Shown: piece by piece, positions 12,340 to 62,473 of the stretch | Layout of the letters: every line of letters begins with the position of its first letter | Position numbering within the stretch: position 1 is the stretch's first letter | Source: a virus | Lineage: Duplodnaviria > Caudoviricetes | IMG/VR virus record: IMGVR_UViG_3300029288_003882 | Location: 19,913-83,912 of that record | Length of the DNA stretch: 64,000 nucleotides | Direction: 5' to 3' (one strand) | Translations under genes and position numbers: made by a program | The notes under the pieces: generated by a model | What the model saw: only the letters and a program-made list of their open reading frames with translations | Told to the model about the DNA's origin: nothing | Database searches by the model: none

Positions 12340-12624
12340 TTACGGTGGCGGCGGTGGTACAGGAGGTATAATAGCAACGATTATACCGTTTGCAACCATT
12401 ACCGTATTTCCTTGAGCGTCTTCAAATTGTCCCGTAAACCCACTAACCGCTGGTGTTAAAATTGTTTCAGTTCCTTTGGTGATCACCCTTATAGTTCCTG
12501 TTGACGAATGAACATAAACGAGACGATTAGCCAATCTTGATATGTATCCTTGTTTCTTTGCGTAAGCCATCGCCGCAGATAGATTTGGTTGTTCGCCCAA
12601 CCAATTTAAGTTTTCAATAGCCAT
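12340..12624 (-). CDS. Hypothetical virion-associated protein
   Basis: ORF with RBS within the late operon; ends in PPVPPPP. Confidence 0.45.
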   Translation of the reverse strand: MAIENLNWLGEQPNLSAAMAYAKKQGYISRLANRLVYVHSSTGTIRVITKGTETILTPAVSGFTGQFEDAQGNTVMVANGIIVAIIPPVPPPPP

Positions 12625-12632
12625 ATTTCGCC

Positions 12633-12953
12633 TCAAAGATTATCATAGACTTTAAAATTACCTATCGATGATTTCCAGGTCCCAAGTGATGGAAGAACAA
12701 TGCTTGCCTGAATCGTCCAGATACCTGCAACATCCAGATCACTCGCAGAAAGCGTCTTGTAATAAATCTTACCATCTGTTCCATCAGTTTCAAAAATACC
12801 TGCCTTTGTCACTGATGTTCCGTTCGGCTTCTTAAAAATAATATTCTTTGTAGTTGCTTCAGAAATGTCCACTGGGTCATCGCCTTCCTTGACGGTTACC
12901 AAGAACTTTGTTCCGATGTCACCCACATGCACCTCTTCGACGACGTTGCTCAT
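12633..12953 (-). CDS. BppU N-terminal-like (baseplate upper) Ig-fold protein
   Basis: GDIGTKFLVTV..PVDIS..IIFKKPNGT..DGKIYY..DLDVAGIWTIQ resembles BppU_N. Confidence 0.7.
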   Translation of the reverse strand: MSNVVEEVHVGDIGTKFLVTVKEGDDPVDISEATTKNIIFKKPNGTSVTKAGIFETDGTDGKIYYKTLSASDLDVAGIWTIQASIVLPSLGTWKSSIGNFKVYDNL

Positions 12954-13111
12954 AAATCCACCTCTTGATTTTCTTGCGTTTTTACAATGACTTGAACGGT
13001 TGTCTCACGTTCTAAGGTTAGATTGAAATCCAACGACGACAGAAGCGACAAGGAAAGGCTTTCTTCCCTATGCACGTATGCATCTATGAGCATTATGTCT
13101 TCGTCGGGCAT
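12950..13111 (-). CDS. Small hypothetical protein (53 aa)
   Basis: Hand-translated MPDEDIMLIDAYVHREES...VDL*; stop overlaps the next ATG (ATGA). Confidence 0.5.
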   Translation of the reverse strand: MPDEDIMLIDAYVHREESLSLSLLSSLDFNLTLERETTVQVIVKTQENQEVDL

Positions 13112-13115
13112 TGCG

Positions 13116-13259
13116 TCACCTTTCAAGGACGAAAGCGTCCGTCCTATCTATATATAATGTGAATTCGAGTATATCTAACCATTCTCGCTGAGGTACGTAT
13201 GATGCCAAACCGTATGAAGCGATTTGGGATCCTATACCGAGTCCTTGTTGTGGGAACAT
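13116..13259 (-). CDS. Small hypothetical protein (47 aa)
   Basis: MFPQQGLGIGSQIASYGLASY...TLYIDRTDAFVLER; starts 1 nt after the fibre stop. Confidence 0.5.
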   Translation of the reverse strand: MFPQQGLGIGSQIASYGLASYVPQREWLDILEFTLYIDRTDAFVLER

Positions 13260-13260
13260 T

Positions 13261-23103: not shown

Positions 23104-23179
23104 TTGTCATTCCGTGCGCCATTTTACAAAATCTATATATATGGATAATGCGTTATACTATACGGAAGTTGGTCAAATG
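23104..23179 (+). promoter_or_regulatory. Cassette promoter 1 (TGTC-N16-TACA, TATA, leader GGAAGTTGGTCAAATG)
   Basis: Same geometry as the promoters at 33385, 36321 and 50942. Confidence 0.75.
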
Positions 23180-27450: not shown

Positions 27451-28443
27451 TTATAATTTTAAACCGTTGACTTCGATATAATGTTTGGTAAATAAATCGT
27501 TGCTATATCTATTTTGGTGTTTTATGAATTCGTCTTTATTGTATTGCTTTATGAAGCGTTCTATTTCTTCGTAAGCGTTCAATATGGACAAGTGTTCCCT
27601 TTCGCCAAATACGAAGCGCATTTTATCGAACGACACATTATAGGACCTATTATCGATGTTTTGCACGTCGGATATAACGTTCAGGTTCTTGTTTATCTTC
27701 TTTAATTCATCCGCAACCTCCGATATACGCAAGTTGAACGAACCTATATTAATTATTTCCCTCATGCGCATGTGCGGATGCACGACCGTCTGCACGAAGT
27801 ATTTGGCGGCATCACGAACATGAACAAACGGGCGCCATTGGTCACCGCCAAAGATATTAATCTTGTTTTCTAAAACGGCGCTTTTGATTAATGTATTGAT
27901 CACCAAATCGAAGCGCATCCTTGGCGAATACCCGAACAATGTGGAAAGCCTGAAAATTTGCCAATCGACATTAATATCCCTATCGGTGCAAACGATATAT
28001 TTTTCCACGTCTGCTTTTGTCTTTGCATACAACGACACTGGGTTAATGTCGCTTGTCTCATACAGTTCCATTTCTTCGGAAAACCCATAAACAGAACATG
28101 ACGAAGCGAATAATAATTTTTTTATTTTGTAGTCTTCGGCTAAATCAATAACATTCTTTGACGCTTCGACATTAACTACTCGGGTGTATTCTGGACTTAT
28201 TGAACATGCGGGGTCGCCAACGATGCCTGCAAGAAGTATAACGTTATCTGTTCCTTTCATCACTTTGGCGATCTGGCAAATGTTCGTTATATCCCCAGTG
28301 ATAACTTCTACCTCTTTCGTTGGTTTCGGAATAATCCCATGCATGAACGAATCAAATATTTTTACCCTTTCACCGTTTTGTATTAAGCCTTCGACGATGC
28401 AAGACCCCAGATATCCAGCACCGCCTATTATTAGAGTTACCAT
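27451..28443 (-). CDS. NAD-dependent nucleotide-sugar epimerase/dehydratase (extended SDR)
   Basis: GGAGYLGS, LAGIVGDPAC, ASSCSVYG, YAKTK (YxxxK), RPFVHVRD. Confidence 0.95.
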   Translation of the reverse strand: MVTLIIGGAGYLGSCIVEGLIQNGERVKIFDSFMHGIIPKPTKEVEVITGDITNICQIAKVMKGTDNVILLAGIVGDPACSISPEYTRVVNVEASKNVIDLAEDYKIKKLLFASSCSVYGFSEEMELYETSDINPVSLYAKTKADVEKYIVCTDRDINVDWQIFRLSTLFGYSPRMRFDLVINTLIKSAVLENKINIFGGDQWRPFVHVRDAAKYFVQTVVHPHMRMREIINIGSFNLRISEVADELKKINKNLNVISDVQNIDNRSYNVSFDKMRFVFGEREHLSILNAYEEIERFIKQYNKDEFIKHQNRYSNDLFTKHYIEVNGLKL

Positions 28444-28451
28444 ATAATCAC

Positions 28452-29036
28452 CTACGGGATATTTCCGAATAAAAATATTTTATTTCTATCATCTATCTTA
28501 TATGTTTGTATCGTTGTTATTTCTGAATTTTTATATTTTTCCAAAACTTCATGTTCCGAACTGAAATATCTTACATGCGTATCAGACATAAAATTTGGAA
28601 CGCTTGCGATATATCTTTTGCCTTTGATCTGGTTCATTAAACGCAAATCGTCCCAAATGTGTTCAAGGAATTCAAGCATGACCACGACTTCGTATTTACC
28701 GAGATTTATTTTGCTTATTGCAGAAAAAACGTCGTCGCATGTGAACTTAAAATATTTATTACGTTGTTTAGCCTGTTCTATTGCAACACTTGAAAAGTCC
28801 ACGCCCATATAATCGACGATACTTGGAATTCCTTCTGCAAATTGACCAGTACCGCATCCTAAATCGAGAATAGATTTGTATGGTCGCAATCTAATATAAA
28901 CGTCTCGCCATATCTTGATATATATCGAAGATTCGTAAGGTGCCGAATAGTCTTTTTTACCTGCGCCCGCATAGTAATCGTTATATTGTTTTGCGGTAAA
29001 TTCAGGCAATTCCGCGCCTCCGTTTTGCATCGTCAA
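28452..29036 (-). CDS. Class I SAM-dependent methyltransferase
   Basis: ILDLGCGTG, GVDFS, LEFLEHI motifs. Confidence 0.9.
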   Translation of the reverse strand: MTMQNGGAELPEFTAKQYNDYYAGAGKKDYSAPYESSIYIKIWRDVYIRLRPYKSILDLGCGTGQFAEGIPSIVDYMGVDFSSVAIEQAKQRNKYFKFTCDDVFSAISKINLGKYEVVVMLEFLEHIWDDLRLMNQIKGKRYIASVPNFMSDTHVRYFSSEHEVLEKYKNSEITTIQTYKIDDRNKIFLFGNIP

Positions 29037-29775
29037 CGACGATCTTCCGCGGGCGCTTGAATTCTTCTGAATTATAATCCCATTTGCTTGATATATTCGA
29101 ACCGTGGTGCCAATAGTATTGTATCGGCGTATCTATGAACTTTATTTTATAATTCTCAGACAGGTTCAACCAGAAATCCCACATAAAGTTCCGATGCACA
29201 TCGTCCCGAATCTTCCAGTCCTTGATTTCTTTCCACGCTTTCGTTCTTACCAAAGAATTATCGATGACGCAACATGTCTCGAGTAAAAAGGCAGGGTCAA
29301 CATAATAACCCTCATTCGCCCGTATGAAGCGTTTTAATGCCTGTGCGGTGATCACCGAATCGAGAGCGGTGAAGTTCTTGTCTGCATTGATGAAATTACC
29401 ATAAGCGGCGCCTATTTCTTCGTTTTCTTCAAGCGCATTAAACTCTACCAGTAGTTTATTTGGGAACCAGAATTCGTCGGCTCCGCAGAAGCAAACATAC
29501 TTGGTAGGATTTATTTTTAGAATATCGAGACCTTGTTGCAAGCCCGCTCTTGGAATACCTTCTTTATTCCATACTTCGATGCGTGAATATTCGGCACTAT
29601 ATTCGTGGCATATCCTTTTGCATAAATCGGGGTCGTCGCCTGCGTCATCGACGACGATAACCCTTTTGGGCAAAATAAGACCACATTCGATGGTCCGAAG
29701 CATCGTTGGCAACATTAATTCATAATTTCGGCAAGCGATTATTACCGTTATGTCCTCTGTTCTTTGTAATGGCAT
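29002..29775 (-). CDS. GT2 family glycosyltransferase
   Basis: VIIACRNY, IVVDDAGD, FCGADE, WDFWLNL motifs. Confidence 0.85.
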   Translation of the reverse strand: MPLQRTEDITVIIACRNYELMLPTMLRTIECGLILPKRVIVVDDAGDDPDLCKRICHEYSAEYSRIEVWNKEGIPRAGLQQGLDILKINPTKYVCFCGADEFWFPNKLLVEFNALEENEEIGAAYGNFINADKNFTALDSVITAQALKRFIRANEGYYVDPAFLLETCCVIDNSLVRTKAWKEIKDWKIRDDVHRNFMWDFWLNLSENYKIKFIDTPIQYYWHHGSNISSKWDYNSEEFKRPRKIVVDDAKRRRGIA

Positions 29776-30871
29776 AGTTAAGCATCTCGCAGACGTATTT
29801 GACATCTGTTAACGTCATGCACACATTGACGGGTAAGGTTAATAATCTTTTCTCAATCACCTGAATTTTTGGGAAGGTATACTTCTGGTGTTCCGTATAT
29901 AGGGCGAGACGGTAAATCGGTTGATATTCGACCGTAGTTTCAATATTTTTCATTTTAAGGAATGTTTGTATTTCTTCCCGATTGACATCAACGGGCAAGA
30001 TCACTGTAAAATTATAAACCGTAGTATCGCTGTTTAAGTAATCACGAGCGAACGGCACGGTTAAGCCTGCAATGTTAAGACACCCATACATGTATGTTCG
30101 ACCGAGTTTTGATAAATGCTTTCTAAATCCTGCCAACTTTTCAAGTTGAACCAGACCAATAGCACATTGATATTCCGTCATTGCACATTTCCCAGATGGG
30201 ATAATCACATCGTATTTCCTGATTTCGTCTGCGATACGACCTATCTCACGCATACATCGGATTTTTTTGCTTACAACATCACTATCGGTAATAACCATAC
30301 CGCCTTCACCGATAGCCAAAGTCTTCGTTGCGTGAAATGAGAAAACGCTTGCATCGCCCCAGTGACCAGCATAATAACCGAAAGATGTGGACCCAATTGC
30401 GTGAGCGCAATCTTCAATCAAGAAGATGCCTTTTTCCTTGCAAAACGCGGCGATTTTGTTGATGTCTTCGCATATATGCCCTCCGTAATGGACGACAACG
30501 ACCCCGACGACATCATCCGTATATTTGCGCTTGATGTCTTCAAAATCGGCGTTTAAATCCCGTTCGCTTTTAATGTCGTATAATCGAACGTTGTGCCCGT
30601 TTCTTGTTGCACAATTCACGGTTGAGACGAACGTCATAGCTGGGGCAAGAACTGTTCCTATCTTGAATGATAACGCCCGAACTGCAAGATAAAGCCCTTC
30701 TGTCGCCGAACAAACAGCGACACCATAATTTTTATGATGCAACTTGGCGATTTTTTCCTCAAATTCTTTCCCTTTATCGTGATGAACAAGCCATCCGCTT
30801 GCGAACACCTCTTTTACCGCCCGCAATTCCTTACTGTCATACTTAAATTGTGCCGTTCGAATCATATCCAT
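29720..30871 (-). CDS. DegT/DnrJ/EryC1/StrS PLP-dependent sugar aminotransferase
   Basis: VVHYGG, IEDCAHAIG, SFHATKTLAIGEGG (PLP lysine), LTLPV. Confidence 0.95.
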   Translation of the reverse strand: MDMIRTAQFKYDSKELRAVKEVFASGWLVHHDKGKEFEEKIAKLHHKNYGVAVCSATEGLYLAVRALSFKIGTVLAPAMTFVSTVNCATRNGHNVRLYDIKSERDLNADFEDIKRKYTDDVVGVVVVHYGGHICEDINKIAAFCKEKGIFLIEDCAHAIGSTSFGYYAGHWGDASVFSFHATKTLAIGEGGMVITDSDVVSKKIRCMREIGRIADEIRKYDVIIPSGKCAMTEYQCAIGLVQLEKLAGFRKHLSKLGRTYMYGCLNIAGLTVPFARDYLNSDTTVYNFTVILPVDVNREEIQTFLKMKNIETTVEYQPIYRLALYTEHQKYTFPKIQVIEKRLLTLPVNVCMTLTDVKYVCEMLNYAITKNRGHNGNNRLPKL

Positions 30872-30881
30872 AAAATCGCCT

Positions 30882-32300
30882 CTATTCGTCGATGATCTTG
30901 TTTAGACGTTGCAGGAATCTTCTCAAACCATACTCGAATCTTGTTTTTACCTTTGCGTCTTCGTCGATGTCGCCCGAGTATCCTTTCTTCATATCTTGAA
31001 TGCACATTATTATATGGTCGACCTCGTTTAGGCAATTGACATACTCGACGCATTCATCCATCTTATGATTCCAGATCACCTGTTTTCCTGCGCTCAAGTA
31101 TTCGAGAACACTTATCGACAATCCGTCCGTATGCGTCAATCTTAGCAACGTTGAGACCTGTGGCATAATCGTCTTCATATCCGACCACATTCCTCCGAGA
31201 TACGTTGCGTTCGGGTGTTCTACTTTTGAAAAGTTCGCAACATCTACTGGTAGACCGTAGATTAAAAATTTAACTTTCGGACAACCAGATATAATCGCAT
31301 GTAATTTATCCGTTGGACAAATGTTATCATTTCGAATATAAATTCCTACAGTGAATTCGTCTGGCATCGGTGCGTCAAAGAATCTAAAGGTGTTTGGCAA
31401 GATATGAATATCCTTGAAGCCTAATTTTATCAAGCGTTCTTCCATTGCCGAATATTCGCATATCACCCGAGGCGTCATAGGATATTCCTTGATATTATAT
31501 TTACCTTCCTCGAGGTAACGAACTTCGGTGCCTGTGAAATAATAATACGGTGTGCATTTGATATTATTTTCACGGAGGGTTTTAAAGATGTATCTAACTG
31601 GATAATCCACTGGCGGCCAGATTAGAACTTTTGAGTGTTGTTTCAATAGACGAACGGCGTCCAGATCATAACGTTTCGCCAACATCCCAGTCATTCTACC
31701 CATATCTTCGGCAAAGCCGTCGCACCACGAGTATGAGATTAAAATATTGTTCTTCGTGAAAGTATAAACGTGGCACGGACTTGCCACCTCGAGGTCATCA
31801 TACAAGCGCCATCCAAATTTCTTGAACAATGCAACGTAATCATGCATAAAGCAATGCTCGTCTGTCTTTTCACATCCTACTGGTTCGGTGATCACCGCGA
31901 ATTTAAATAATTCGGTGATTTGCTTGATAACGACCTCAATATTTAGGTCGTTGACATGTTCGAGAACGGTATTGCAAAAGAACAAATCGAACTGGTTAGG
32001 TTTTAGAAATCTTTTCATGTTCGTTAAGGAATCTACTCTAACTGGCACGTTTGGATATCTGTTCTTGCATTCTTGCGCCAACTCGGACGATAGTTCTATG
32101 CCCATCAATTTCTTTCCTGCGAAGATTCTAAAATAATCTCCGACACCGCATCCTCCATCGATGACAGTGTTAAACTTGATTTGTTGCAAGATGCCCGCAA
32201 GAAGATCACCATGAGCGATGATAGATTCAGATATTTCCTTTGGGTGTTTTGCAATATATTCCTTCGCTCGGTTTTCCCAATATTCTTTATCTTGATACAT
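30882..32300 (-). CDS. Fusion: class I methyltransferase plus GT-B-like domain
   Basis: N-terminal IDGGCGVG..VLEHV; C-terminal DGLSISVLEYLSAGKQVI. Confidence 0.75.
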   Translation of the reverse strand: MYQDKEYWENRAKEYIAKHPKEISESIIAHGDLLAGILQQIKFNTVIDGGCGVGDYFRIFAGKKLMGIELSSELAQECKNRYPNVPVRVDSLTNMKRFLKPNQFDLFFCNTVLEHVNDLNIEVVIKQITELFKFAVITEPVGCEKTDEHCFMHDYVALFKKFGWRLYDDLEVASPCHVYTFTKNNILISYSWCDGFAEDMGRMTGMLAKRYDLDAVRLLKQHSKVLIWPPVDYPVRYIFKTLRENNIKCTPYYYFTGTEVRYLEEGKYNIKEYPMTPRVICEYSAMEERLIKLGFKDIHILPNTFRFFDAPMPDEFTVGIYIRNDNICPTDKLHAIISGCPKVKFLIYGLPVDVANFSKVEHPNATYLGGMWSDMKTIMPQVSTLLRLTHTDGLSISVLEYLSAGKQVIWNHKMDECVEYVNCLNEVDHIIMCIQDMKKGYSGDIDEDAKVKTRFEYGLRRFLQRLNKIIDE

Positions 32301-32301
32301 A

Positions 32302-33132
32302 TTAACCCCACATTGTATATTTTCCGGATTCGGTATCTACTGCGAATCTGATGCCGTGTCTTCGCAATAGATTTCTTGCCTTCTCGGAAATTTTAGTAAC
32401 TTCGCCTTCGATCACCATTAAATCAAAATGGAAATAAGCGTTATCGATTCTATAAGTTAAATCGTCAATCTTTGACCAGATTGTATTAAGTTCGCCTAAG
32501 ATTTCTTCAATCATTTTTTCCTGCTCTTTGACTTCGATACGTGGTAATTTTTGTGATAAGAAATCCTTGGGGCGTGCAGGAATACCAAGCGCAATGCAAT
32601 TATTTGGAACGTCTCTTGTTACCAAAGAATTTGCACCGATAACGACATTGTTTCCAATGGTGACGCCCGGCATTACCGTCGCATTTGGAATCCATACTTT
32701 GTTTCCTATCCTGACAGGTGCGAACTTGACAGGAAAGCCTTCGATGCAAGACAAATAGGCTCCGTGGGTATAAATGTTAGTGAAACGACCAATACCTACT
32801 TCGTTGCCTATTATCACTTGTCGGGCGGTATTTATCATCGAATAACTGCCCATATGGAACCAATAACCTATTTTCAAGGATGATAATGTTTCTTGACAGG
32901 AACCACCACCAATCTCTGCGTGATGATTCGAATAGAACTCTCGCCCGATCTGGATATCCCGACCGTGGATTATCGTATCTTTTCCGATGATAGAATTTTT
33001 CCCAATTTCAAATCTTTCGGTAACTTCTATGTCAACGCCGTCCCGAATTTCGCAATTATCGCCGATAATTAAATTCTTACAATTAATCTTTGCCGTGGGC
33101 GATATGCGAACGTTGTTTCCTATTTTTTGCAT
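32302..33132 (-). CDS. Hexapeptide-repeat (LbH) sugar acyltransferase
   Basis: Repeated IGxN/IGxD hexapeptides; PGVTIGNNVVIGANSLVTRDVP..ALGIPA. Confidence 0.9.
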   Translation of the reverse strand: MQKIGNNVRISPTAKINCKNLIIGDNCEIRDGVDIEVTERFEIGKNSIIGKDTIIHGRDIQIGREFYSNHHAEIGGGSCQETLSSLKIGYWFHMGSYSMINTARQVIIGNEVGIGRFTNIYTHGAYLSCIEGFPVKFAPVRIGNKVWIPNATVMPGVTIGNNVVIGANSLVTRDVPNNCIALGIPARPKDFLSQKLPRIEVKEQEKMIEEILGELNTIWSKIDDLTYRIDNAYFHFDLMVIEGEVTKISEKARNLLRRHGIRFAVDTESGKYTMWG

Positions 33133-33324: not shown

Positions 33325-33461
33325 TTCCTTGGATGACGCTTGGAACTGGATGCTTCATTTTAAGGTTTCCAATCTGCTGGATATTGTAGTTCCGCACGTT
33401 GGGCTACAAAGAGTATATATACTGGTATTGTGATTATCTATACAATGGAAGTGGACAAATG
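33325..33461 (+). promoter_or_regulatory. Cassette promoter 2
   Basis: TTCCTTGGATGACGCTTGGA, then TGTA-N16-TACA (33385-33408), TATATATA, leader TGGAAGTGGACAAATG. Confidence 0.8.
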
Positions 33462-34923: not shown

Positions 34924-35157
34924 TCAAAATCCCAATAGTCTTAAATAAACGTGCCACGGACAACCTTCTTCTGCATAAGCGCATACAACAGATGGCGACA
35001 CCGTTCCATCTGGGGAAATTGTATGATCATCTATCGTCTCGATTTTGTTGCAACAACCACACCTAACAACGGTAGACTTTTTACCGTATGCATTTGTCCA
35101 ATAAGTCCATTCGCCCACATCTGGGAACTTTTTATCGGTCTTTTTTAATTCTATCAT
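34924..35157 (-). CDS. Small Cys/His-rich hypothetical protein
   Basis: VRCGCC..HTISPDGTVSPSVVC..CPWH. Confidence 0.55.
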   Translation of the reverse strand: MIELKKTDKKFPDVGEWTYWTNAYGKKSTVVRCGCCNKIETIDDHTISPDGTVSPSVVCAYAEEGCPWHVYLRLLGF

Positions 35158-36256: not shown

Positions 36257-36395
36257 TTCCTTGGATTGAGCTTGGATTGTAATCCGTGCACCAAGTGATT
36301 TTGTCGCTTGTCGTTTTCTATGTAGTTCCAGCGTCGGAACTACAAAGAGTTTATATATAGGTTTGTTTATACTATATGATGGAAGTGGTCAAATG
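36257..36395 (+). promoter_or_regulatory. Cassette promoter 3
   Basis: 22-bp TTCCTTGGATTGAGCTTGGATT; perfect inverted repeat TGTAGTTCC-N6-GGAACTACA (36321-36344); AAGAG-TTTATATA; leader TGGAAGTGGTCAAATG. Confidence 0.85.
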
Positions 36396-38354
36396 ACAAC
36401 ATTCGGAAACAAGAAACTCAACAAGAAGGAAAAGAAGCACCTGAAAGAGTGCGGAATTGTGGGCAAGTGGATGATGGAACAACAGGTAAAGGCTATGCTT
36501 GAAGAACGCAAGAAGTCCAGAGACGAGCGTGTTCTTTGCTGGGAATGCTGGACAATCGCTAAGAAACTCGGAATGGTTAAAGAAGTTTGCCCCGAATGCG
36601 GGTGCACATGGGGGGATTCTTCCCGAGAATGCGACGCCTGCCACTCGCTTGTAAGCCCGATTTTTGTGGAGGCATAATCGTGATCAACGAAGCAACGATA
36701 AAGGAAGCCGTTGCAAGCGACCCGACGCAAGAAATAACTGAAGGTGGAAACGTCGTAGGCGAAAACTGGAACCTCCGCGTTAATGCATTCGTCGAAGCAC
36801 ATGGCAAGATCGTCGGGTCCATAGTTTACAACTACCTCTCGGATGATGAAATATACAACAAAGGAAAAGCCGCAATCGAGCACGGAATGATTGCAGGTAC
36901 CGATATGTATATCGGCGTAATCCAAGAATACGCAAAACAGGGATATTTCCACTGCATGATATGTGGGGCGCATATACATCACCACTATTGGGCGAAGATG
37001 AACGACGGGAAATATGGTGCAATCGGCTCCGAATGCATCGACGTAATAACGGGCACAACGATAGGCGAACTTGCCCAAGTAGCCGCTGGAAAGGCAATAC
37101 GTGATACGCTTGCAAGAAGGAAAGCCTCGGCGGTCAAAAGGGAATTTGTCAGGTATTATAATGCGCTTGATGACGACGAAAAGAACCACGTATTTGTCAT
37201 AAGCGACGGGATAAACAGGTCTTGCCCATACATCACCGAATCACAATACAAGAAGACGAAAGAAACATACCACTTCCGCGAAAGGGCGAAATTCAACGAA
37301 ACGAACATAATAGAATTCTGCAAAGAACATTCCAAATGCTCGGAATTCATGTCGTCTTGCGTCGAACACCCAACTTTTGGAAGAATCGAAGCGGTTAAAA
37401 ATTGCGGATGCAAGACCTGTGGAACGAAGTTCAAAGCCCCAAAGTTCGAAGCAAAACCACCCGAACATTTCAACGTATGCGATTGGCTGGTTGCAAGACC
37501 AATAAACTTCAAGGATATCAAGATAGTTCAAGAAGTTGCCGAAATGAAGAAATGCGGAACGCCTTGCGCTTGCATACAAGAAATCACCTGCGAAAAACAC
37601 ATGAAGTGGATTGCCGATTGCATAATCGGAAGCGATAAGTCTACCACGTGGAAATTCAAAAGCGCAATAAACGATATAAAAGTCCTGATTGAAATCGGAT
37701 ACTTAATGCCTGACTTTGGCAAGGTCGAACCTGACCCAATGAGTGATGACGAAGTAAAAACGCTTAATGCAAAGGTCAACAAGGAAATAGAACGTGCAAC
37801 GAAGATGGCGGACAAGATGAAAGCCGACTTTGAGGCAAAGAAGCAAAAAGAAGAAATCGAAAAGAAAAATTATGAAGCAAAGTTTAAGACAGGAGGGAAT
37901 TAAAATGGACGGTAGAATGAAACAATCTTTGGACAAACACATAACTGGAAATTATGGCGAGGACCAATATCCTGAAGAGAAAGAAGATTGCAACCCCAAA
38001 GAATATATCAGATGCCTGCAATGCAACGAAGCAATGCCACGAAGCGAATTTCTCGAACATTTCAGGACGAAGCATGAAGCGGTGATCACCGACTTCTTGA
38101 ATGACTTTCTAAGGGAAGCCGAAGAACTTGCGACGAAAGAGAACGAAACGTGCATACATCAAGGTATAGAAAAGGACGAAAAGGGGAAGACGCATTGCAA
38201 GATAACTAACACCCCATGCACATGGTCAAGCGTTCCCAAGGACTGCCCGAAAGAAGCGAAAGATTACACTAAGAAGTATAGACTTAATGGGCATCTTCGT
38301 TCCTGCGATTGTGGCGAATGCTTCGATTGTGATGCCGATAACGACGAACTATAA
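36393..38354 (+). CDS. Cassette 3 genes (36393-36677; 36680-37903, multi-Cys, ~407 aa; 37905-38354)
   Basis: RBS-preceded ORFs with multiple CxxC motifs; no recognisable family. Confidence 0.7.
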
Positions 38355-38365
38355 ACGCTTATCAA

Positions 38366-38410
38366 GACGACGAAGCAAACCACTTCCACTTCGTCGTCTA
38401 TTTTTTTTTT
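38366..38410 (+). terminator. Hairpin plus T10 terminator of cassette 3; loop antisense to the cassette leader
   Basis: GACGACGAAG/CTTCGTCGTC stem; loop contains ACCACTTCCA. Confidence 0.75.
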
Positions 38411-46607: not shown

Positions 46608-46833
46608 TAAAAAAATATTATTTTATGTGCATCACGCAAGTCTGCGCCTACACATCACGGGACATTAATATAATAATATAATAAATATATTAATTAATAT
46701 ATATATATATTATAGACTAATCTATTAGTAAAAGCGTTAACTAACTTACGTCTATACGCATATAGCATATAAGCGAAAAGAACACACTTGTATCCGTCTT
46801 CTGACGTTGCACACATAAAAAAATATTTTTTTA
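46608..46833. other. Candidate replication origin: AT-rich core bounded by 22-bp inverted repeats
   Basis: TAAAAAAATATTATTTTATGTG (46608-46629) vs the reverse complement of 46812-46833, one mismatch; (AT)n core; between the helicase and a wHTH gene. Confidence 0.5.
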
Positions 46834-46932
46834 TTTCCTACGTCGATTTAAAGTATTTTGATGAATCTTTTTTTATTTTTATCAAAATAGAAAATCTTTT
46901 TATATTCCTATAACAATTTACGTCCGATAACT

Positions 46933-50882: not shown

Positions 50883-51015
50883 TTCCTTGGATTGAGCTTG
50901 GATTTACCTACCTTATTCTGACGCATCCAATCCCAAAATATTGTAAATCCAGCGTTGTAATTACAATATCTTTATATAGCCCTATTGTATTTACTATATT
51001 GGAAGTGGTCAAATG
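50883..51015 (+). promoter_or_regulatory. Cassette promoter 4
   Basis: 22-bp repeat identical to 36257-36278; TGTA-N16-TACA (50942-50965); TTTATATA; leader TGGAAGTGGTCAAATG. Confidence 0.85.
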
Positions 51016-53028
51016 ACAAACACAAACAACAACAAAATCGGAAACGGAATTGTGGGCGTGTTCTTCAAGCGAATGTCTGATGGCAAGATGTTCAAGATCG
51101 AGCAAGTCAAGGAAATAAAATCACTTGATGACGACACAAAAACCGAAAAGATATATTATGCATGTGAGCCCGGAAATGAGACTGCAAAGTTCATAATCGA
51201 CGCATACACAATAAGCCAAGGAATGCTTTTCGAAAACGCAAGGATGGGCTAAAAATGACGAATGCAAAAGTTAGGCAAAAGATGACAATCGGGCAATACA
51301 AAGCGAAAATGATAACCGAATCTGACAGGAATTTCAAGATAGACCAAAAGATAGTTGCAAGAAAGAACTTGATTGCACAACTCGAGAATGAAATCCACGA
51401 ATTGGGCAAAAAAAAAGACCCACACATTTTCCAGAGATGCAATCAACACCGCAGAAAAGGGCAATGCGACAAGAATCGGAACGATTTTCATCGATATGCA
51501 TGACAGGCTCCCATCATTCCCAAAACATGTTTTTGAAGTCAACGGAATCTGGACCGAGTATTACGGCAAGAACATCGATGGCAACTTTGACAACCAAGCC
51601 GATTCGAACTTTGCATGGGGCTTTTACCCGATAAAGGACCGCAGTCACTACGACGACGAAAAGGAGGAGTAAAAAATGACAACGAACGTCCGCAAGAACG
51701 ACGCTGGAATATCTTTCGATTTCTCTGACGGAATGGGCGACAACCTGCGCTTAGTATCACGCAACGATGGAAAGATTTTCTTCGAAGCGAACACGGTAAC
51801 AATGAACAACGGAAGGGCAAAAAACAATCTCGTTTTGTTCGAAAATCTTGATAGGGAATTTTTGGGCAAGTTAAGGGAAACCTTGAACATCATAATAAAA
51901 GACCTTGACGAAAAGGAAAAGAAAAAGGCGCCCGCCAGTGGGCGTCTTTTTTACCACTATCACGGGTCAAGATTCGAAATACACCCGACGTGGAAGACCG
52001 TTATCACGTTCGAAGGTGAAATCGCCCTTTTGCACGCTGACGAACTTGTTAAAATTGGCGTTTTCGAAAGGAAGAACCACGGACCTGGAACATACGGCGC
52101 CGTTTCATACAAATATATCGGCTTTGCAGATTCTTTGGAGGCGCAATAATGTCCGACGTGATAACCTCCGATATGTCGCCTGCCGAAGCCATCTTGCGTT
52201 CCGTCGTCGCATTTGAACCCATTGATGAGAACACAATGACACAAATAAAGATTGCAACCTTCGAAAAGACGAACATGAAAAGCAACGGCGACGACGTTGT
52301 ATCCGCATTGATACAAAACGGGTATCTTTTCTACAACCTCGGAATATACACATCGAACAAAGATTCCAAGACAATCGCCCAAATCACCAGTTCCTTGAAA
52401 TCGGAGAGGATAATATAATGAACGACAAAGCAGAAGAAAAGAAGCGCATTGTCCAAGCGTTGCTTGATGTCAACGACAACGCGGTAATAAATGCGCTTCT
52501 TACAATCTATGCAAGACAAACGCAAGACGAACAACAATCGGAACGAACGATAGAAAACAACGCAATCGGATTTTCCGGTGTTGACGCTGAAATCTTGTCA
52601 TCGTTCGCAAGACAATACAACGAGCGTGGCTTTCTTACGTTTAAACAAATGGTGATCGCCCGCAAGAACATCAAGCGGTACTGGCGTCAAGTCATCGAAG
52701 CATACAACGGAAATTTATCGTCGATTACCGACGTTCCTAAGAAGAGGTGTTAAAGATGGGAAAATGTGTGATATGCAATCAGGAATTTGAAGGATACGGA
52801 CACAATGCCGAACCTTTGAAGACGGGCGCATGTTGCGGTTCTTGCAACGTGCAGGTAGTTCTTGAACGCTTGAAAATCGCCAAAGAAATGAAAGACAAGA
52901 TGAACAACGACGGGTGGTCATTCGTCATAAGTTGCGCTTGCGGATACAAGGCAAAGGGCAACAATGAAGACGAAGCGAACGAAGACTTGGAAAAGCATCA
53001 AGACAAAGAACACTCGTCACCATTTTAG
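51013..53028 (+). CDS. Cassette 4 genes (51013-51252; 51255-51672 frameshifted; 51676-52149; 52149-52418; 52418-52753; 52756-53028)
   Basis: Small coupled ORFs; 52418 and 52756 resemble recurrent phage hypotheticals. Confidence 0.7.
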
Positions 53029-53029
53029 G

Positions 53030-53150
53030 ATACGTTGCACCGACGCATAGCCAAGCGACCCTTTGACCAAGTCCCCGTCGTCATACGAAGACACAACGAC
53101 AGAACGACGACGGGGAAAGCGTTGCCTTGCGTCGGTGACGAACAACGTAT
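53030..53150 (+). ncRNA. Putative structured RNA (long three-stem hairpin)
   Basis: Nested stems ATACGTTG/CAACGTAT, CACCGACGCA/TGCGTCGGTG, TCCCCGTCGTC/GACGACGGGGA. Confidence 0.6.
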
Positions 53151-53178
53151 AAATACGCATATCAAGATTAACAAAATA

Positions 53179-53244
53179 GCAACATCGACGAAGTTCCGCA
53201 TTTGACCGCTTCCACTCTCTTTTGTAGTTCGTCGTCGATGTTGC
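53179..53244 (+). ncRNA. Putative antisense hairpin RNA / 5' leader targeting the cassette leaders
   Basis: 13-bp stem GCAACATCGACGA/TCGTCGATGTTGC; loop contains CATTTGACCGCTTCCA; TATAAATA at 53147-53154. Confidence 0.65.
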
Positions 53245-53270
53245 ACCCACTTTAAGGAGGTGAATAAAAA

Positions 53271-53417
53271 ATGACAGATGGCAGGTGTATGAAATGCAAG
53301 GAACAGGTCAAGATGAAAGACGAGAAGGAAGTTGAGATGAAGAACGGACGCATGATGATGAAAGGCAAATGCCCGAAATGCGGAACCGTCGTATGCAAGA
53401 TACTCGGAAAGAAATAG
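53271..53417 (+). CDS. DUF5679-like small basic Zn-ribbon protein (48 aa)
   Basis: Below the ORF-track cutoff: MTDGRCMKCKEQVKMKDEKEVEMKNGRMMMKGKCPKCGTVVCKILGKK; AAGGAGGTGA RBS. Confidence 0.8.
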   Translation: MTDGRCMKCKEQVKMKDEKEVEMKNGRMMMKGKCPKCGTVVCKILGKK

Positions 53418-53432
53418 TTCCAGATCAAGGAC

Positions 53433-53470
53433 GGGGACGAATTTTCAACGATTCGTCCCCACATCTTTTA
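53433..53470 (+). terminator. Hairpin terminator after the DUF5679-like gene
   Basis: 10-bp stem GGGGACGAAT/ATTCGTCCCC then CTTTT. Confidence 0.6.
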
Positions 53471-53480
53471 GGTGAAATTT

Positions 53481-54479
53481 ATGGTAATAAAAAGCGTTGC
53501 ACCGTTGCGTATATCTTTTGCAGGCGGGGGAACGGATGTACCGCCATTTCCAGAAAAGTATGGTGGGCTTGTCGTTAGTTGCACAATCGACAAATATGCC
53601 CACGTTTCGGTAAATAGCAGTTACGACGAAGATATAAAAATCGAGCCGCTCGATTATAACATCACGAAAAGATACAAAGTCAACCAGCATCTCGAATATA
53701 ATGGCGAACTCGATTTGGTAAAAGTTGTAATCAATCATTTTAAACCATTATCAGGCTTTGATTTGATAATGAAATCGGATGCGCCGCCAGGTTCAGGATT
53801 GGGTAGTTCTTCGGCGCTTATTGTCGCATTAATAGGCGCATTTGCCAAAATGACTAATAAGACTATGACGAACTATCAAGTGGCGCAATTGGCATACATT
53901 CTCGAACGACGACGGTTAAAAATATCAGGCGGCTATCAAGACCATTATTCTGCAACTTTTGGAGGATTCAATACCATAACGTTCTTCAAAGATAACATTG
54001 CAGTTATTCCTATGTCGATGTCGCAAGAATTAATTAAGACGATAGAACACAATTCGATTTTATGCTATACTGGTGGAACGAGAGTATCGGCTAATATCAT
54101 TGACGACCAAACGACGAACGTATTAAAGAAAGACGAAACAGTTATGGATGCATTGTGTGGCACCAAAAGGCTTGCGAACGAGTTGTCCGAAGCGTTGAAA
54201 CATTCCGATATTTCAAATTTTGGAAATATCTTGAATGAAGGATGGAAAATGAAACGCAAATTTTCCAAAAAGATGACGAACGACGACATAGATAAACTTT
54301 ATTCGACGGCGATCACCAACGGCGCATTGGGCGGAAAATTATTGGGTGCTGGAGGTGGTGGATATTTATTTTTCTATTGCGATTTTGGGAAGAAACAAAA
54401 CGTTATTGAAGCATTGAAATTGGCAGGTGGCAACGTCGTCGATTTTGAATTTGAACCCAACGGATTGAAGGTGATTTAA
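53481..54479 (+). CDS. hddA: D-glycero-alpha-D-manno-heptose-7-phosphate kinase (GHMP family)
   Basis: APLRISFAGGGTDV, PPGSGLGSSS, GGYQDHY, GGKLLGAGGGG; adjacent to gmhA. Confidence 0.9.
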   Translation: MVIKSVAPLRISFAGGGTDVPPFPEKYGGLVVSCTIDKYAHVSVNSSYDEDIKIEPLDYNITKRYKVNQHLEYNGELDLVKVVINHFKPLSGFDLIMKSDAPPGSGLGSSSALIVALIGAFAKMTNKTMTNYQVAQLAYILERRRLKISGGYQDHYSATFGGFNTITFFKDNIAVIPMSMSQELIKTIEHNSILCYTGGTRVSANIIDDQTTNVLKKDETVMDALCGTKRLANELSEALKHSDISNFGNILNEGWKMKRKFSKKMTNDDIDKLYSTAITNGALGGKLLGAGGGGYLFFYCDFGKKQNVIEALKLAGGNVVDFEFEPNGLKVI

Positions 54480-55072
54480 TGGCGGCTTTTGCAAGTTATA
54501 TTAATGAAATCAAAGAACGATTTAAGGAAAGCGCAAAGATTAAAAATGATATTGCAAAGGATGACGAACAACTTTTGGTATTAAATTCAATCGCAAACAT
54601 GATAATACGAGCATACAAGAACGACAACAAGATATTAATCTTTGGCAATGGTGGTTCCGCCGCTGACGCTCAACATATAGCCGCCGAACTCGTTTCTAAA
54701 TTCAAGATGAATAGAAAAGGGTTGCAAGCAATCGCATTAACGACCAACACATCGGTGATCACCGCGATAGGCAACGATTTTACATTTGACCAGATTTTCG
54801 ATAGACAAGTTGAGGCTTTTGCCAAAAGGGGCGATGTCGTCATCGGAATATCCACGAGCGGTGAATCTAACAACGTTATTTTAGGATTAATGAAAGCGGA
54901 TAAAATGGGTTGTTATACAATAGCATTCACCGGCAAAAAAGATAATAGAATTTCTATGTTTTCGGTTCTCACGTTTAATGTCCCGTCGAAAGATACGGCA
55001 CGAATTCAAGAAGCACACATTACCGCAGGTCATATCATCTGCGAAATTGTAGAACGAGAATTGTTCTCGTAA
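54479..55072 (+). CDS. gmhA: Phosphoheptose (sedoheptulose-7-phosphate) isomerase
   Basis: GNGGSAADAQHIAAEL, TAIGNDF, RQVEA, GISTSGES, RIQEAH. Confidence 0.95.
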   Translation: MAAFASYINEIKERFKESAKIKNDIAKDDEQLLVLNSIANMIIRAYKNDNKILIFGNGGSAADAQHIAAELVSKFKMNRKGLQAIALTTNTSVITAIGNDFTFDQIFDRQVEAFAKRGDVVIGISTSGESNNVILGLMKADKMGCYTIAFTGKKDNRISMFSVLTFNVPSKDTARIQEAHITAGHIICEIVERELFS

Positions 55073-55108
55073 GAGTTGGTAAATATGTGGAGGAGAAGCA
55101 TAAAAAAG

Positions 55109-55660
55109 ATGATCGTCGGCGTGGACGTTGACGGTGTTCTGCGTGATTTTTACGGGTCGCTTGAACGAACTTATTTAAAATATTACCACGACCACATCAT
55201 AAAAGATCCGCCATCTTTTCAATTGCATGAGTTGTACCCGATTGGGTACAAGATTTATGATTTTGCTTTTGAAGAACATGCAGGCGAAGTTTTAGGATTT
55301 GCCGATGCATATCGAAACGCCGAAGGCTTCATGCGTATGCTTCATAAATTCGCCGATATTGTTATCATCACATCACAACCTACAAAACGTGCCAAGGTCT
55401 TCACCTTTGCGTGGCTTCAACGTGCCGATATTTTGCAACATGTCGATAGTGTGGTCATTGTTCAAACGAACGGGCTATTAAAAAAACATCATATCGGCGT
55501 TAACTACATAATCGACGATTACCCACCAAACTTGATGGATTTCCCGCAATCTAAGGTTATAGTTTTCGATCAGGTCTGGAATAAAGGCTTAGAGTGGGGT
55601 AAACGTTGCTATTCATACGACGAAATACTCAAATATCTCCAAGGTCGCATGACGAAATAG
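55109..55660 (+). CDS. 5'(3')-deoxyribonucleotidase-like HAD phosphatase
   Basis: VGVDVDGVLRDF, IIITSQP, YIIDDYPPN, QVWN. Confidence 0.85.
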   Translation: MIVGVDVDGVLRDFYGSLERTYLKYYHDHIIKDPPSFQLHELYPIGYKIYDFAFEEHAGEVLGFADAYRNAEGFMRMLHKFADIVIITSQPTKRAKVFTFAWLQRADILQHVDSVVIVQTNGLLKKHHIGVNYIIDDYPPNLMDFPQSKVIVFDQVWNKGLEWGKRCYSYDEILKYLQGRMTK

Positions 55661-55692
55661 TTTATATAAACATTAATTGATTTTATGTCCCA

Positions 55693-57684
55693 ATGCTATT
55701 AAAGATTATTCAATCAAAAGAAATCCAGTCCTTGTTCACTTGTCAATACAATACCAATAAAGTAGTGGTGAACTTACTCAAAGGAGGCGAAGCGTTAAAA
55801 TGCCACTTGACAGTGAACGACGTTATACTCGGAAAATACGACCTTCTTTCTGCAACGTCGATACAAAAAGCATACAAGCAGTTTTCCCTTTCGTTCACTC
55901 AACATAAGGAAAAATTCAAAGACCAAAACGAATTTGTGGACTTGATGTTGCATGTTGGTCAGAAAATCCGCGACCAAGAATTTGAGCGTGAGCAAACAAT
56001 CATACAAAGACAACTTACCAAAGAAGCAAAAGAATTTTTATCTGCGCCTGATCTAATCGATAGGATGGATAATATCGAACGACGAACGACAAAAGACCCA
56101 CTCATCTATTGCGAGGAAGATTTATTGCTTTTCAATCTTGTTATTGTATCTTGCAAGACACCAAAACCAATAACTTACGAACATACTGGACCCACATCTT
56201 CAGGTAAAACTTTCCCCGCTGAACATGCGGTCAATGGATTTCCAAAAGAGATGATATTTGACCCCGCAGGCGTATCAGCAAAAGCCAACAAATACGATTA
56301 TGATTATCAAGACCCAGAAACTGGTGAATTCGTCAATAAGACTGGTGAAAAATGCATTTATTTCCGTGAAAAGGAAGATTCAATCGAAGCGGTGAAATTT
56401 TTTAAGCCAATGATGTCGCATGACAAAGATCGATTGATGTATAAAGTCACTGGGAAAAATCAATCGACGGGCACAATGGAAACCATAACCTATGTTTTGG
56501 ATGGTATCGCTTCTTTCATTTTACTTTCCGTTAAGCATATGGAGGACGAAGAAATGTCCTCCAGAACTATGAAAGGGTCGCCCACAATATCCAGAGAAAA
56601 AACCAACCTCGTTATAACATCGACGTTTGAAAGTGATGCAAAGAGGCAATTATGGAAATTACCAGCAGAATTACCAGTAATGCATGACGCAATGTTTTCC
56701 CTAAAAAAGCATGAAGCGATAAACATTTTTGGACCAATATTGGGCAAAATATTCCCAAAAGATGAGATGCGCCGTGCAAGAGACATGAATCGTTTGCGTG
56801 GGTTAATCCAAGCCTGTACCGTCTTGCATCAATACCAAAGATGTTATGAAATTATGGAAGACCAGCAGGTTTATTATTCATCACTCGAAGATAATATAAT
56901 TTCTTTGTTGCTTCTTGACAAGTTGCTCGAATCGACAATGCTCGGAATTCCAGCCACGACAATGAAGATTTATGAACTTATGAAAGATTTAGAGACACGA
57001 GATATACCTTTGACGTTGAATAATATCCACGAAAATTCAGACGCAATAGGTTACCATCAAACGATGGATACTTTAAAGGATGTGCATCTTGATACTCTTG
57101 AAAATCACCGATTGATAAAGATAAAAGTAAAAGCGACCCGATCAAAGGAAAGGTCGTATGCGATTAATCAACGCTTCGAAGACATCACAAAGGTTCCAAA
57201 ATTGACGCCGTTGTTTATCGAAGAGTTGCAACTATGCTATAAAAAAATAATCGAAGAACAAAAGGAGGCATTTTCGGTAATGAAGTTGCCTGAAGTATCT
57301 TTGCCTAAGAACACTATACAACATAAGACGAACGACGAACACATAAAGGACGTTATCAAGCATATGTTTGGCTTTAATTACTTCGATGCATCGACAGAAG
57401 GAAACGTCTTGTGGAAGATATGCTTAAAAGAAATGCGGGACTTGATGTTTTCGCGGCACGTCTTAGATCAACCCGCAATCGATACAACCGAAGAGAAAGA
57501 AATCATCGAACGAAAAGATAAAGCGATAAATGAAATCAAGACTGGACAATCCGCAAGAGAATGGCATCGTGAAATAACCCCAGTTGACGAAGCGTTATAC
57601 CAAGAATACGTGCAACAACAAAAAGAAAAACGCAAGATTTTGGAATCAGGTGGTGATGACGACGATAAATTCTCTGGTTCATGA
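55693..57684 (+). CDS. Divergent MCM-like AAA+ ATPase (putative replicative helicase)
   Basis: TGPTSSGKT (Walker A), VSAKANKY, CIYFRE, EMSSR (Arg finger-like), RRARDMNRLRGLIQA lid. Confidence 0.65.
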   Translation: MLLKIIQSKEIQSLFTCQYNTNKVVVNLLKGGEALKCHLTVNDVILGKYDLLSATSIQKAYKQFSLSFTQHKEKFKDQNEFVDLMLHVGQKIRDQEFEREQTIIQRQLTKEAKEFLSAPDLIDRMDNIERRTTKDPLIYCEEDLLLFNLVIVSCKTPKPITYEHTGPTSSGKTFPAEHAVNGFPKEMIFDPAGVSAKANKYDYDYQDPETGEFVNKTGEKCIYFREKEDSIEAVKFFKPMMSHDKDRLMYKVTGKNQSTGTMETITYVLDGIASFILLSVKHMEDEEMSSRTMKGSPTISREKTNLVITSTFESDAKRQLWKLPAELPVMHDAMFSLKKHEAINIFGPILGKIFPKDEMRRARDMNRLRGLIQACTVLHQYQRCYEIMEDQQVYYSSLEDNIISLLLLDKLLESTMLGIPATTMKIYELMKDLETRDIPLTLNNIHENSDAIGYHQTMDTLKDVHLDTLENHRLIKIKVKATRSKERSYAINQRFEDITKVPKLTPLFIEELQLCYKKIIEEQKEAFSVMKLPEVSLPKNTIQHKTNDEHIKDVIKHMFGFNYFDASTEGNVLWKICLKEMRDLMFSRHVLDQPAIDTTEEKEIIERKDKAINEIKTGQSAREWHREITPVDEALYQEYVQQQKEKRKILESGGDDDDKFSGS

Positions 57685-61777: not shown

Positions 61778-61861
61778 ACTTTTTTGTGTTAGAATTTTGT
61801 TATAATAAAGTTTATATACCGATAATGCATTTACTACCTCACACCTTATGGAGGTGTTTTA

Positions 61862-62473
61862 ATGGAAAGCGCAAAGACAAACGACAACAACAAGAACAAG
61901 GTCGCCTTTGTGATTGAATGCACAAAGGGACATAAGAGCCAGTATTTCCCGAAGAACGGTGTCCCAGCAAAGGACATAAAGTGCCCACATCTCGTCGCCA
62001 ACATACCCTGCAAGGCACGCTGCAAAGTCATCGACACACCCGCAGTACCTCCCGTCGATGTGACCAAGGAAGAACCAAAGAAGACGACGAAGCCCGAAAA
62101 GGCGAAAGATGCAAGCACAACCGAACCCAAGGAAAAGCCGATATACAAAACGGAAGAACTTGTCGATGGCGTCGCTGATGACGTTAAGGCAATGTTCGCA
62201 AAGATCGAAAGCGCCGCAAAGTCCTCGGGCTTGACATCGAAGCCCACCAAGTTGTATGTTCTTTTCAAGAAAGACAAGGACGCAAGGTTCAAGATAGAGA
62301 TACATGACAAGTTCCTAAACGTCTTCGTCAAGACGGAAAAGGCAATAACCGACTTGAAGGACAAGACGGCTGCCCGTGATGCAAAGGGCGATAACTTCAC
62401 CCATAAGATAAGCAAAGTCCTGCCTGCGGACGAATCTTCGCTTATGAAGATATTAAAGATCGTGATGTCGTAG
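61862..62473 (+). CDS. Hypothetical protein (N-terminal Zn site, Lys/Pro linker); monocistronic
   Basis: Own TTTATATA promoter (61811), GGAGGTG RBS and downstream terminator. Confidence 0.65.
   Translation: MESAKTNDNNKNKVAFVIECTKGHKSQYFPKNGVPAKDIKCPHLVANIPCKARCKVIDTPAVPPVDVTKEEPKKTTKPEKAKDASTTEPKEKPIYKTEELVDGVADDVKAMFAKIESAAKSSGLTSKPTKLYVLFKKDKDARFKIEIHDKFLNVFVKTEKAITDLKDKTAARDAKGDNFTHKISKVLPADESSLMKILKIVMS

Follow-up and report, generated by a model that had tools for sequence, protein, structure and literature searches.

Hairpin loops complementary to a repeated promoter leader in a probably archaeal tailed virus: candidate RNA anti-leaders derived from an inverted promoter

What is the complement of a ribosome-binding leader, common to four operons, doing in the loop of a hairpin that precedes a different gene? 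The question is raised by a tailed-virus genome of which a 64-kb window was analyzed (contig C9, positions 19913-83912; all coordinates below are positions in this window unless contig numbering is indicated). Such a complement could belong to an RNA that masks the leaders, could be an inert relic of a promoter, could bind a protein as DNA, or could serve the mRNA in which it lies. The system is compact (16-nt leader, 13- to 40-nt loop) and comes from an almost unexplored field: the documented examples of gene regulation in archaeal tailed viruses that we found are the repeated promoters of HF2 and the counter-transcript of phiH.

The virus and its probable host

The contig (83,912 bp) carries a direct terminal repeat of 496 bp (98.8% identity), which shows that the viral genome is complete and is no provirus, and encodes a portal, a prohead protease and a terminase. 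The MAG that holds the contig has sigma-70 factors, contains neither TBP nor TFB and looks like a member of Campylobacterota. No sequence linking the contig to this MAG was found, and assignment of the virus to the co-binned Campylobacterota was rejected; the contig is mis-binned and probably represents an archaeal virus.

An archaeal host is quite probable, judging from the gene content and promoter layout, and the main finding is independent of the host. The RFC-like clamp loader matches those of haloarchaeal tailed viruses with E about 1e-35, compared with 1e-20 for bacterial phages; the virus carries a family B polymerase and Mre11/Rad50-like genes; and the closest homologues of its GHMP kinase and of its DUF5679 protein are found in contexts that appear archaeal and cellular. 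In this virus, as in terminase relatives recovered from other samples, start codons without an SD are preceded at 21–24 nt by TATA boxes, which is the archaeal leaderless layout. Against an archaeal host stand the terminators, which are of the hairpin plus T-run type, and one replication protein that is ~50% identical to Bacteroidales phage proteins.

Four promoter cassettes with a common leader

The leader in question is the last part of a promoter cassette that is present in four copies, all on the plus strand.

23104-23179 (+), cassette 1: palindromic operator, TATA, A/T proximal element, leader, ATG
33384-33461 (+), cassette 2: leader at 33446-33461
36320-36395 (+), cassette 3: leader at 36380-36395; closest to the element in hairpin A (below)
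50941-51015 (+), cassette 4: leader at 51000-51015

The cassettes have a common layout, in which a palindromic operator with 10-bp arms is followed by a purine-rich BRE-like run, an 8-nt TATA box, an A/T-rich proximal element and the leader, and in all four the BRE/TATA core heads an operon. Cassettes 3 and 4 have the same 16-nt leader, even though the adjoining promoter spacers have diverged, and the leader is conserved well past the needs of an SD alone. A 20-mer that includes a pair of CTTGGA-type repeats additionally precedes the ATG by ~135 nt in cassettes 2, 3 and 4 (33325-33344, 36257-36276 and 50883-50902, respectively) and is absent from cassette 1.

An inverted promoter fragment in the loop of hairpin A

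The complement of the leader is embedded in the following features.

53137-53167 (+), upstream box common to hairpin A and a second hairpin, B (below): half-site-like heptamer, TATAA, 13-mer
53148-53155 (+), TATA-like box TATAAATA, upstream of hairpin A
53179-53244 (+), hairpin A: perfect 13-bp stem (53179-53191 / 53232-53244) and 40-nt loop (53192-53231)
53199-53214 (+), anti-leader: reverse complement of the 16-nt SD-to-ATG leader of cassettes 3 and 4
53221-53230 (+), operator half-site complement in loop A: reverse complement of the right half-site of cassette 3, then a BRE-like purine run

The TATA-like box had been recognized in the initial annotation, which placed it one base off (53147-53154). 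The stem of hairpin A begins 23 nt past the box and, given the archaeal TATA spacing of 22–24 nt, the TSS is predicted at ~53178-53179, at the base of the hairpin. The window contains 6 perfect hairpins of at least 11 bp, compared with 0–3 in shuffled sequences, and hairpin A is the longest.

The anti-leader matches the leaders of cassettes 3 and 4 in 15 of the 16 positions, and the sole difference (T/C) becomes a G-U pair in plus-strand RNA. The leader of cassette 2 has one extra mismatch beyond the G-U, and that of cassette 1 (ending at the ATG 23177-23179) aligns with a 1-nt bulge. The initial description of the 13-bp stem, the complement in its loop and the deviations in cassettes 1 and 2 holds. 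The complementarity spans both the SD and the start codon of mRNAs encoded elsewhere, as it does in trans-encoded RBS-masking antisense sRNAs. A 16-mer with at most one mismatch is expected by chance 0.0044 times per window (analytic estimate), and the 15/16 match together with the adjoining half-site goes far beyond what chance would give. The anti-leader is genuine and non-random; a chance origin, at an expectation of ~0.004 per window, is rejected.

The half-site in the loop is identical to that of cassette 3 (10/10), closer than the cassettes are to each other. When hairpin A is read on the minus strand, the right half-site and the BRE-like run are joined nearly directly to the leader and ATG, and the ~30-bp TATA-to-TSS segment, that is, the TATA box and the proximal element, is absent; the initial annotation was right on both the half-site/BRE copy and the missing TATA segment. 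Unlike cassettes 1–4, the element has no BRE/TATA core heading an operon. Its homology to cassette 3 ends exactly at motif borders. The element clearly descends from an inverted promoter of the cassette-3 type minus the TATA and proximal segment. The motif ACCRCTTCCA occurs 4 times compared with 0.10 expected, namely in two cassettes and two hairpin loops. Outside the loop, at 53137-53146, the half-site-like heptamer adjoins the TATA box; together with the loop A copy it makes up an inverted repeat (12/15).

The genes flanking hairpin A are all on the plus strand and there is no T run of at least 5 between the end of the cassette-4 operon (53028) and the hairpin, so that the anti-leader is expected to be transcribed; for the same lack of T runs, an RNA reading through from cassette 4 would hold both the leader and the anti-leader. 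No T run follows hairpin A, which accordingly does not have the form of a hairpin plus oligo-T terminator. An Rfam covariance-model search of 52000-54500 yielded no match at E <= 1.

Two more stretches with partial complementarity to leader variants were noticed. Past the stop of the cassette-4 operon and ahead of hairpin A, the plus strand can form a long imperfect hairpin (53030-53150; region fold z = -6.1). In an internal loop of this rod, 9 nt (53062-53070) are complementary to the leader variant of cassette 1, a match that was dropped as independent evidence because matches of this kind are near chance genome-wide. A 12-nt perfect complement of the cassette 2 leader variant is found at 35089-35100, on the plus strand, ~1.6 kb downstream and inside a probable minus-strand ORF; it was dropped as well, being probably due to chance (BLAST E about 1).

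The gene downstream of hairpin A

Hairpin A leads a short gene, whose features are as follows.

53271-53417 (+), 48-aa basic zinc-ribbon gene (DUF5679): strong SD at 53254-53263; codon-usage log-odds +0.43
53376-53386 (+), ORF segment complementary to loop A: 11 nt, perfect, against 53193-53203 (5' part of the loop)
53433-53460 (+), terminator-like hairpin past the end of the DUF5679 gene; a short T run comes next

The ORF matches PF18930 (DUF5679) at positions 2-40 of 40, with E 4e-11 and 43.3 bits compared with the cut-off of 27. The strong RBS, the DUF5679-like protein of 48 amino acids and the terminator had all been annotated at the outset and are upheld. The DUF5679 homologues elsewhere are encoded in unrelated contexts and have short, unrelated leaders.

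A second, homologous hairpin

A hairpin with a similar loop is located at the end of the cassette-3 operon.

38365-38399 (+), hairpin B: perfect 11-bp stem and 13-nt loop, homologous to hairpin A
38401-38410 (+), T10 run, directly after hairpin B

Within loop B, 38379-38388 is perfectly complementary to the leader over its first 10 nt. The hairpin is found just past the stop codon of the last plus-strand gene in the cassette-3 operon, at the point where minus-strand genes converge. Hairpin B thus has the hairpin plus oligo-T form and, from its position after the last gene at a convergent junction, appears to be, together with the T10 run, the terminator of this operon.

The homology between loci A (53137-53243) and B (38343-38405) can be gleaned from their local alignment score, 61.4 compared with 18.2 +/- 3.5 for shuffled sequences, none of which (0/1000; maximum 33.8) reaches this value. 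The two loci have in common the inner stem, the anti-SD block, the 3' arm and the upstream box, whose copy in locus B overlaps a gene's stop codon; the 13-mer box between the TATA box and hairpin A (53155-53167) recurs in locus B with one mismatch. The differences amount to about 6 indels and to substitutions at only about 5 positions (about 92% identity in alignable blocks), so that conservation is block-wise and includes the anti-SD block. The two stems are built from partly different sequence, the outer 7 bp of stem A coming from an A-specific insertion. Hairpin B has neither the half-site nor the ATG-proximal part and retains the perfect 10-nt anti-SD. It is likely to be a trimmed derivative, given that A is not derivable from B by random insertion because the extra bases of A recreate promoter motifs.

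A third copy of the motif pair occurs upstream of the window, at 13255-13284 in the record numbering of contig C9, inside a Rad50-like ORF (12348-14579), where a half-site/BRE-like 13-mer (12/13) is followed by the exact 13-mer box of 53155-53167.

The identical leaders of cassettes 4 and 3 are located ~2 kb upstream of hairpins A and B, respectively, on the same strand. The hairpins lie at the ends of those operons, which makes action in cis possible. No anti-leader hairpins were found at the ends of the cassette-1 and cassette-2 operons: the latter ends in an ordinary hairpin with a T8 run and the former inside a gene overlap.

Folding and pairing of the hairpin RNAs

The predicted duplexes of loop A with the leaders of cassettes 1–4 have energies of -24.2, -25.2, -31.1 and -28.5 kcal/mol, respectively, and those of loop B with the leaders range from -12.3 to -16.5 kcal/mol. 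Hairpin A folded alone has an MFE of -24.9 kcal/mol. When the UTR is folded alone, hairpin A is the MFE structure, with the anti-leader in the loop and an opening cost of 4.7 kcal/mol. In the full RNA (53178-53470), the MFE is -85.8 with pairing between the UTR and the ORF, compared with -75.1 when the hairpin is enforced (a gap of 10.7 kcal/mol), and in this model of the complete DUF5679 mRNA the anti-leader is mostly paired (opening cost 13.5 kcal/mol). The long-range helix is driven by the pairing of 53193-53203 with 53376-53386, jointly with a leader-like site at 53300-53311; an 11-nt complement between UTR and ORF was reached in 24 of 5000 shuffles. Fold z-scores are similar on the plus and minus strands and so do not discriminate between them.

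The antisense reading put forward in the initial annotation fares well in part. The exposure of the anti-leader in the loop when the hairpin is folded alone, its setting on the strand of the neighboring genes, the predicted pairing of -24 to -31 kcal/mol with all four leaders and the probable archaeal nature of the virus agree with it. Overlooked there were the preference of the full mRNA for pairing with the ORF, the position of both hairpins at the 3' ends of operons and the lack of a role for the half-site in an RNA model.

Comparison with related sequences

No nucleotide relatives were detected by blastn against phage records or by a DNA search of 60 related genomes. Patterns for the leader and the operator (IMG/VR and metagenome contigs) and for the hairpin and the upstream box (IMG/VR) yielded chance matches only. 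Two small proteins encoded upstream, when used as a route to syntenic relatives, led to nothing, and the same route through the GHMP kinase ended in cellular genes as the nearest homologues. The terminase relatives, at 45–51% identity, are partial contigs only and differ in their cassettes; a GTDB scan for relatives returned three MAG contigs with mixed labels. Same-strand complements of at least 10 nt between a leader and a hairpin loop were absent from 954 kb of related viral loci (partial loci), which indicates that such complements are rare by chance.

One of the terminase relatives, the IMG/VR contig L054 (terminase 47% identical), has repeated cassettes of its own, in which a TATCGAT-type palindrome abuts the TATA box and an identical long leader, different in sequence from that of the virus studied here, is found at several operons on both strands. 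The same layout with a different operator and leader suggests that the cassette architecture is a trait of the lineage.

Candidate anti-leaders acting as RNA

The reading that we tentatively prefer, and that may well prove wrong, is that hairpins A and B are RNA-level anti-leaders masking the SD and AUG of the cassette mRNAs, in cis or in trans. The loop would expose the complement of the SD-to-AUG leader that is common to the four cassette mRNAs, pairing between loop and leader would block ribosome loading, and the duplex might also turn into an RNase substrate, as with Tant of phiH. In cis, the 5' leader would pair with the 3' hairpin of its own operon transcript; in trans, hairpin A would act from within the DUF5679 5'UTR or a cassette-4 read-through RNA. 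The production of RNAs in these forms, their pairing in vivo and an effect of the pairing on expression are what we infer.

An RNA role is favored by a combination of observations: there are two homologous plus-strand hairpins with the same anti-SD, the second of which strengthens the case by holding it in its loop as well; their conservation is block-wise; the predicted pairing is strong; the leader itself is conserved; and hairpin B has kept the anti-SD while the half-site was lost. The case is weakened by several others. The half-site in loop A would be useless in RNA, as the cassette transcripts start downstream of the operators, the ORF behind hairpin A competes in cis for the anti-leader, and two of the four operons (those of cassettes 1 and 2) are without such hairpins. 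Moreover, A and B are only ~8% apart in alignable blocks, so that a recent duplication without selection could explain the retention of the anti-SD, and template-switch events can yield perfect stems without selection.

A fuller scenario, in which a disabled inverted early promoter gave rise to a family of anti-leader hairpins that throttle the translation of a four-operon regulon, either as 3'-end feedback or as a switch in the DUF5679 transcript, is rather unlikely as a whole. The initial proposal of a single trans-acting 'master switch' expressed from its own promoter, with early-to-middle timing and help from the DUF5679 protein, is unsupported.

Alternative explanations

The first alternative, somewhat unlikely, is that the hairpins are relics: an inverted promoter fragment was caught in a hairpin, lost its TATA box, and with it an antisense promoter, and was then duplicated, the complementarity to the leader being merely inherited. 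Hairpin B would then be a terminator hairpin only, and hairpin A a structural or stability element or nothing. This would account for the make-up of the element, which consists of exactly contiguous promoter parts (half-site, BRE, leader, ATG) minus 30 bp and includes a half-site without use in RNA, and for hairpin B being a textbook hairpin plus T10 terminator. The ~92% identity of A and B in aligned blocks fits a young duplication, cassettes 1 and 2 are without equivalent hairpins, and conservation elsewhere was not found either by the pattern searches or in the 954 kb of related loci. A relic would, however, hardly be expected to show ~6 indels to 5 substitutions, a ratio that is far from neutral and resembles that of conserved blocks, nor homology to cassette 3 that stops precisely where the motifs do, nor two perfect stems made of partly different sequences. 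Furthermore, plus-strand RNA is to be expected, and at about -26 to -31 kcal/mol a 16-nt duplex would be hard to keep inert.

It is improbable that the element works as DNA, with the half-site and the leader motif binding one or more virus factors that recognize the operators and TSS regions of the cassettes. Placed past the DUF5679 promoter and devoid of a core promoter itself, it would then serve as a roadblock, a decoy or an autoregulatory operator. The perfect half-site, which exceeds the match between cassettes, would be explained in this way, as would the heptamer that abuts the TATA box in inverted orientation to the loop copy; the third locus, on contig C9, joins a half-site/BRE-like 13-mer to the box upstream of hairpin A, and in HF2, partial motifs of the intergenic repeats at other promoters have been read as common regulatory motifs (PMC8707807). 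The palindromic operator is nevertheless represented by just one half-site, hairpin B is without any half-site and still has the anti-SD, the perfect stems are left unexplained and the regulator is only hypothetical.

Less probable still is a purely cis-acting 5'UTR of the DUF5679 mRNA, in which a toggle between the local hairpin and the long-range helix (53193-53203 with 53376-53386; 53202-53213 with the leader-like 53300-53311) would set translation or stability, and the leader complementarity would be a by-product. The rarity of the 11-nt perfect complement among shuffles and the lower energy of the long-range fold of the full-length RNA speak for such a toggle, and the site inside the ORF resembles a cassette leader, with an in-frame Met15. 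On the other side, the DUF5679 homologues have short and unrelated leaders, hairpin B is left unexplained and the fold z-scores are alike on both strands.

A fifth cassette on the minus strand, whose SD and ATG (at 53201) are intact and would start a 58-aa gene (53025-53201) in a frame open for 58 codons, was rejected as having next to no likelihood on the non-coding codon usage of the ORF (log-odds of -0.16 bits per codon compared with +0.25 to +0.43 in real neighbors), which also has no TATA box upstream on the minus strand, no Pfam match and a course across two hairpins. An invertible promoter switch was rejected because the 40-bp segment is too short.

Relation to known systems

Repeated promoter cassettes have a precedent among archaeal tailed viruses in the class I intergenic repeats of halovirus HF2 (PMC8707807). 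In both viruses, an upstream regulatory motif, BRE/TATA and a conserved TSS motif head early or middle operons, and partial copies of single motifs are found at other promoters too; however, the sequences are unrelated, and neither an inverted TATA-less hairpin copy nor a complement of the TSS motif has been described for HF2.

An early transcript of phiH is bound at its 5' end by the antisense RNA Tant, and cleavage of the duplex follows (Stolt and Zillig 1993, as related in PMC6210493 and PMC8707807). As far as these accounts go, phiH resembles the virus studied here, in which the antisense RNA is a candidate, in that an archaeal tailed virus directs such an RNA against the 5' end of an early transcript, and differs in that Tant is encoded in cis opposite its single target, with facing promoters. 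In the virus studied here, the opposite strand has a sense promoter that is dead, and pairing would be with four paralogous leaders encoded elsewhere or with the 5' end of the very transcript that carries the hairpin. The locus does not form a pair of the phiH T1/Tant type: the minus-strand copy is without TATA and proximal element and the 58-aa ORF has non-coding usage. The initial remark that no equivalent is described in archaeal tailed viruses overlooks both Tant and the HF2 cassettes.

The nearest bacterial-phage analogue of the proposed anti-leader is the c4 antisense RNA of phages P1 and P7, which reportedly belongs to the same operon as its target and pairs through short exposed segments at sites covering the RBS. 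It is said to be a processed RNA of 77 nt, from bacterial phages, with one target operon and no promoter-derived origin.

The class of 3'UTR-derived sRNAs includes the terminator hairpin. Hairpin B with its T10 run is similar to these in that the 3' end of an operon mRNA carries a seed-like sequence, and dissimilar in that the seed is in the terminator loop. GlnZ is an example of a 3'UTR-derived sRNA (PMC9731577). Another archaeal RNA, sRNA162 of Methanosarcina mazei, masks an RBS via a single-stranded region and has both cis and trans targets (PMC3510493); it differs from the hairpins described here in being cellular, in its unrelated sequence and structure, and in having no multi-copy leader regulon.

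Repeated promoter cassettes (HF2), a viral antisense RNA (phiH) and an archaeal RBS-masking sRNA (sRNA162) are thus already known. We have not come across a description of an inverted promoter copy that is TATA-less, lies in hairpin loops and is complementary to a multi-operon leader. Under the fuller scenario given above, the hairpins would be the first antisense regulator with several targets and a capacity to act in trans to be described for an archaeal virus, and there would be a clear route from promoter duplication to a regulatory RNA. Should the hairpins act on the common leader, one short RNA motif would coordinate dispersed viral operons post-transcriptionally in an archaeon, and such a regulator would have arisen from a dead promoter copy. 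If the hairpins are only relics, they still record the turnover of promoter cassettes in a new, probably archaeal virus lineage.

Other features of the genome

Several further observations concern other parts of the genome. Sugar-modification genes are found at 53472-57684 and 27451-33132, encoding a heptose-type GHMP kinase, a SIS isomerase, an NT5C-like phosphatase, a DegT aminotransferase, methyltransferases and a glycosyltransferase; the nearest homologues of the kinase (56–59% identical) are cellular genes adjoining pyrB and pyrI. An IS605-type TnpB gene with a Cas12f-like TNB domain lies within the viral genome at 10724-11944. Between a helicase gene and the next operon, the stretch 46609-46910 is extremely A/T-rich and contains tandem TATA-type repeats, which makes it a candidate replication origin or promoter cluster. 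Finally, a further TATA promoter with a similar proximal element is located at 61811-61864; its SD may pair with an upstream CACC-type segment, in a possible SD-sequestering hairpin.
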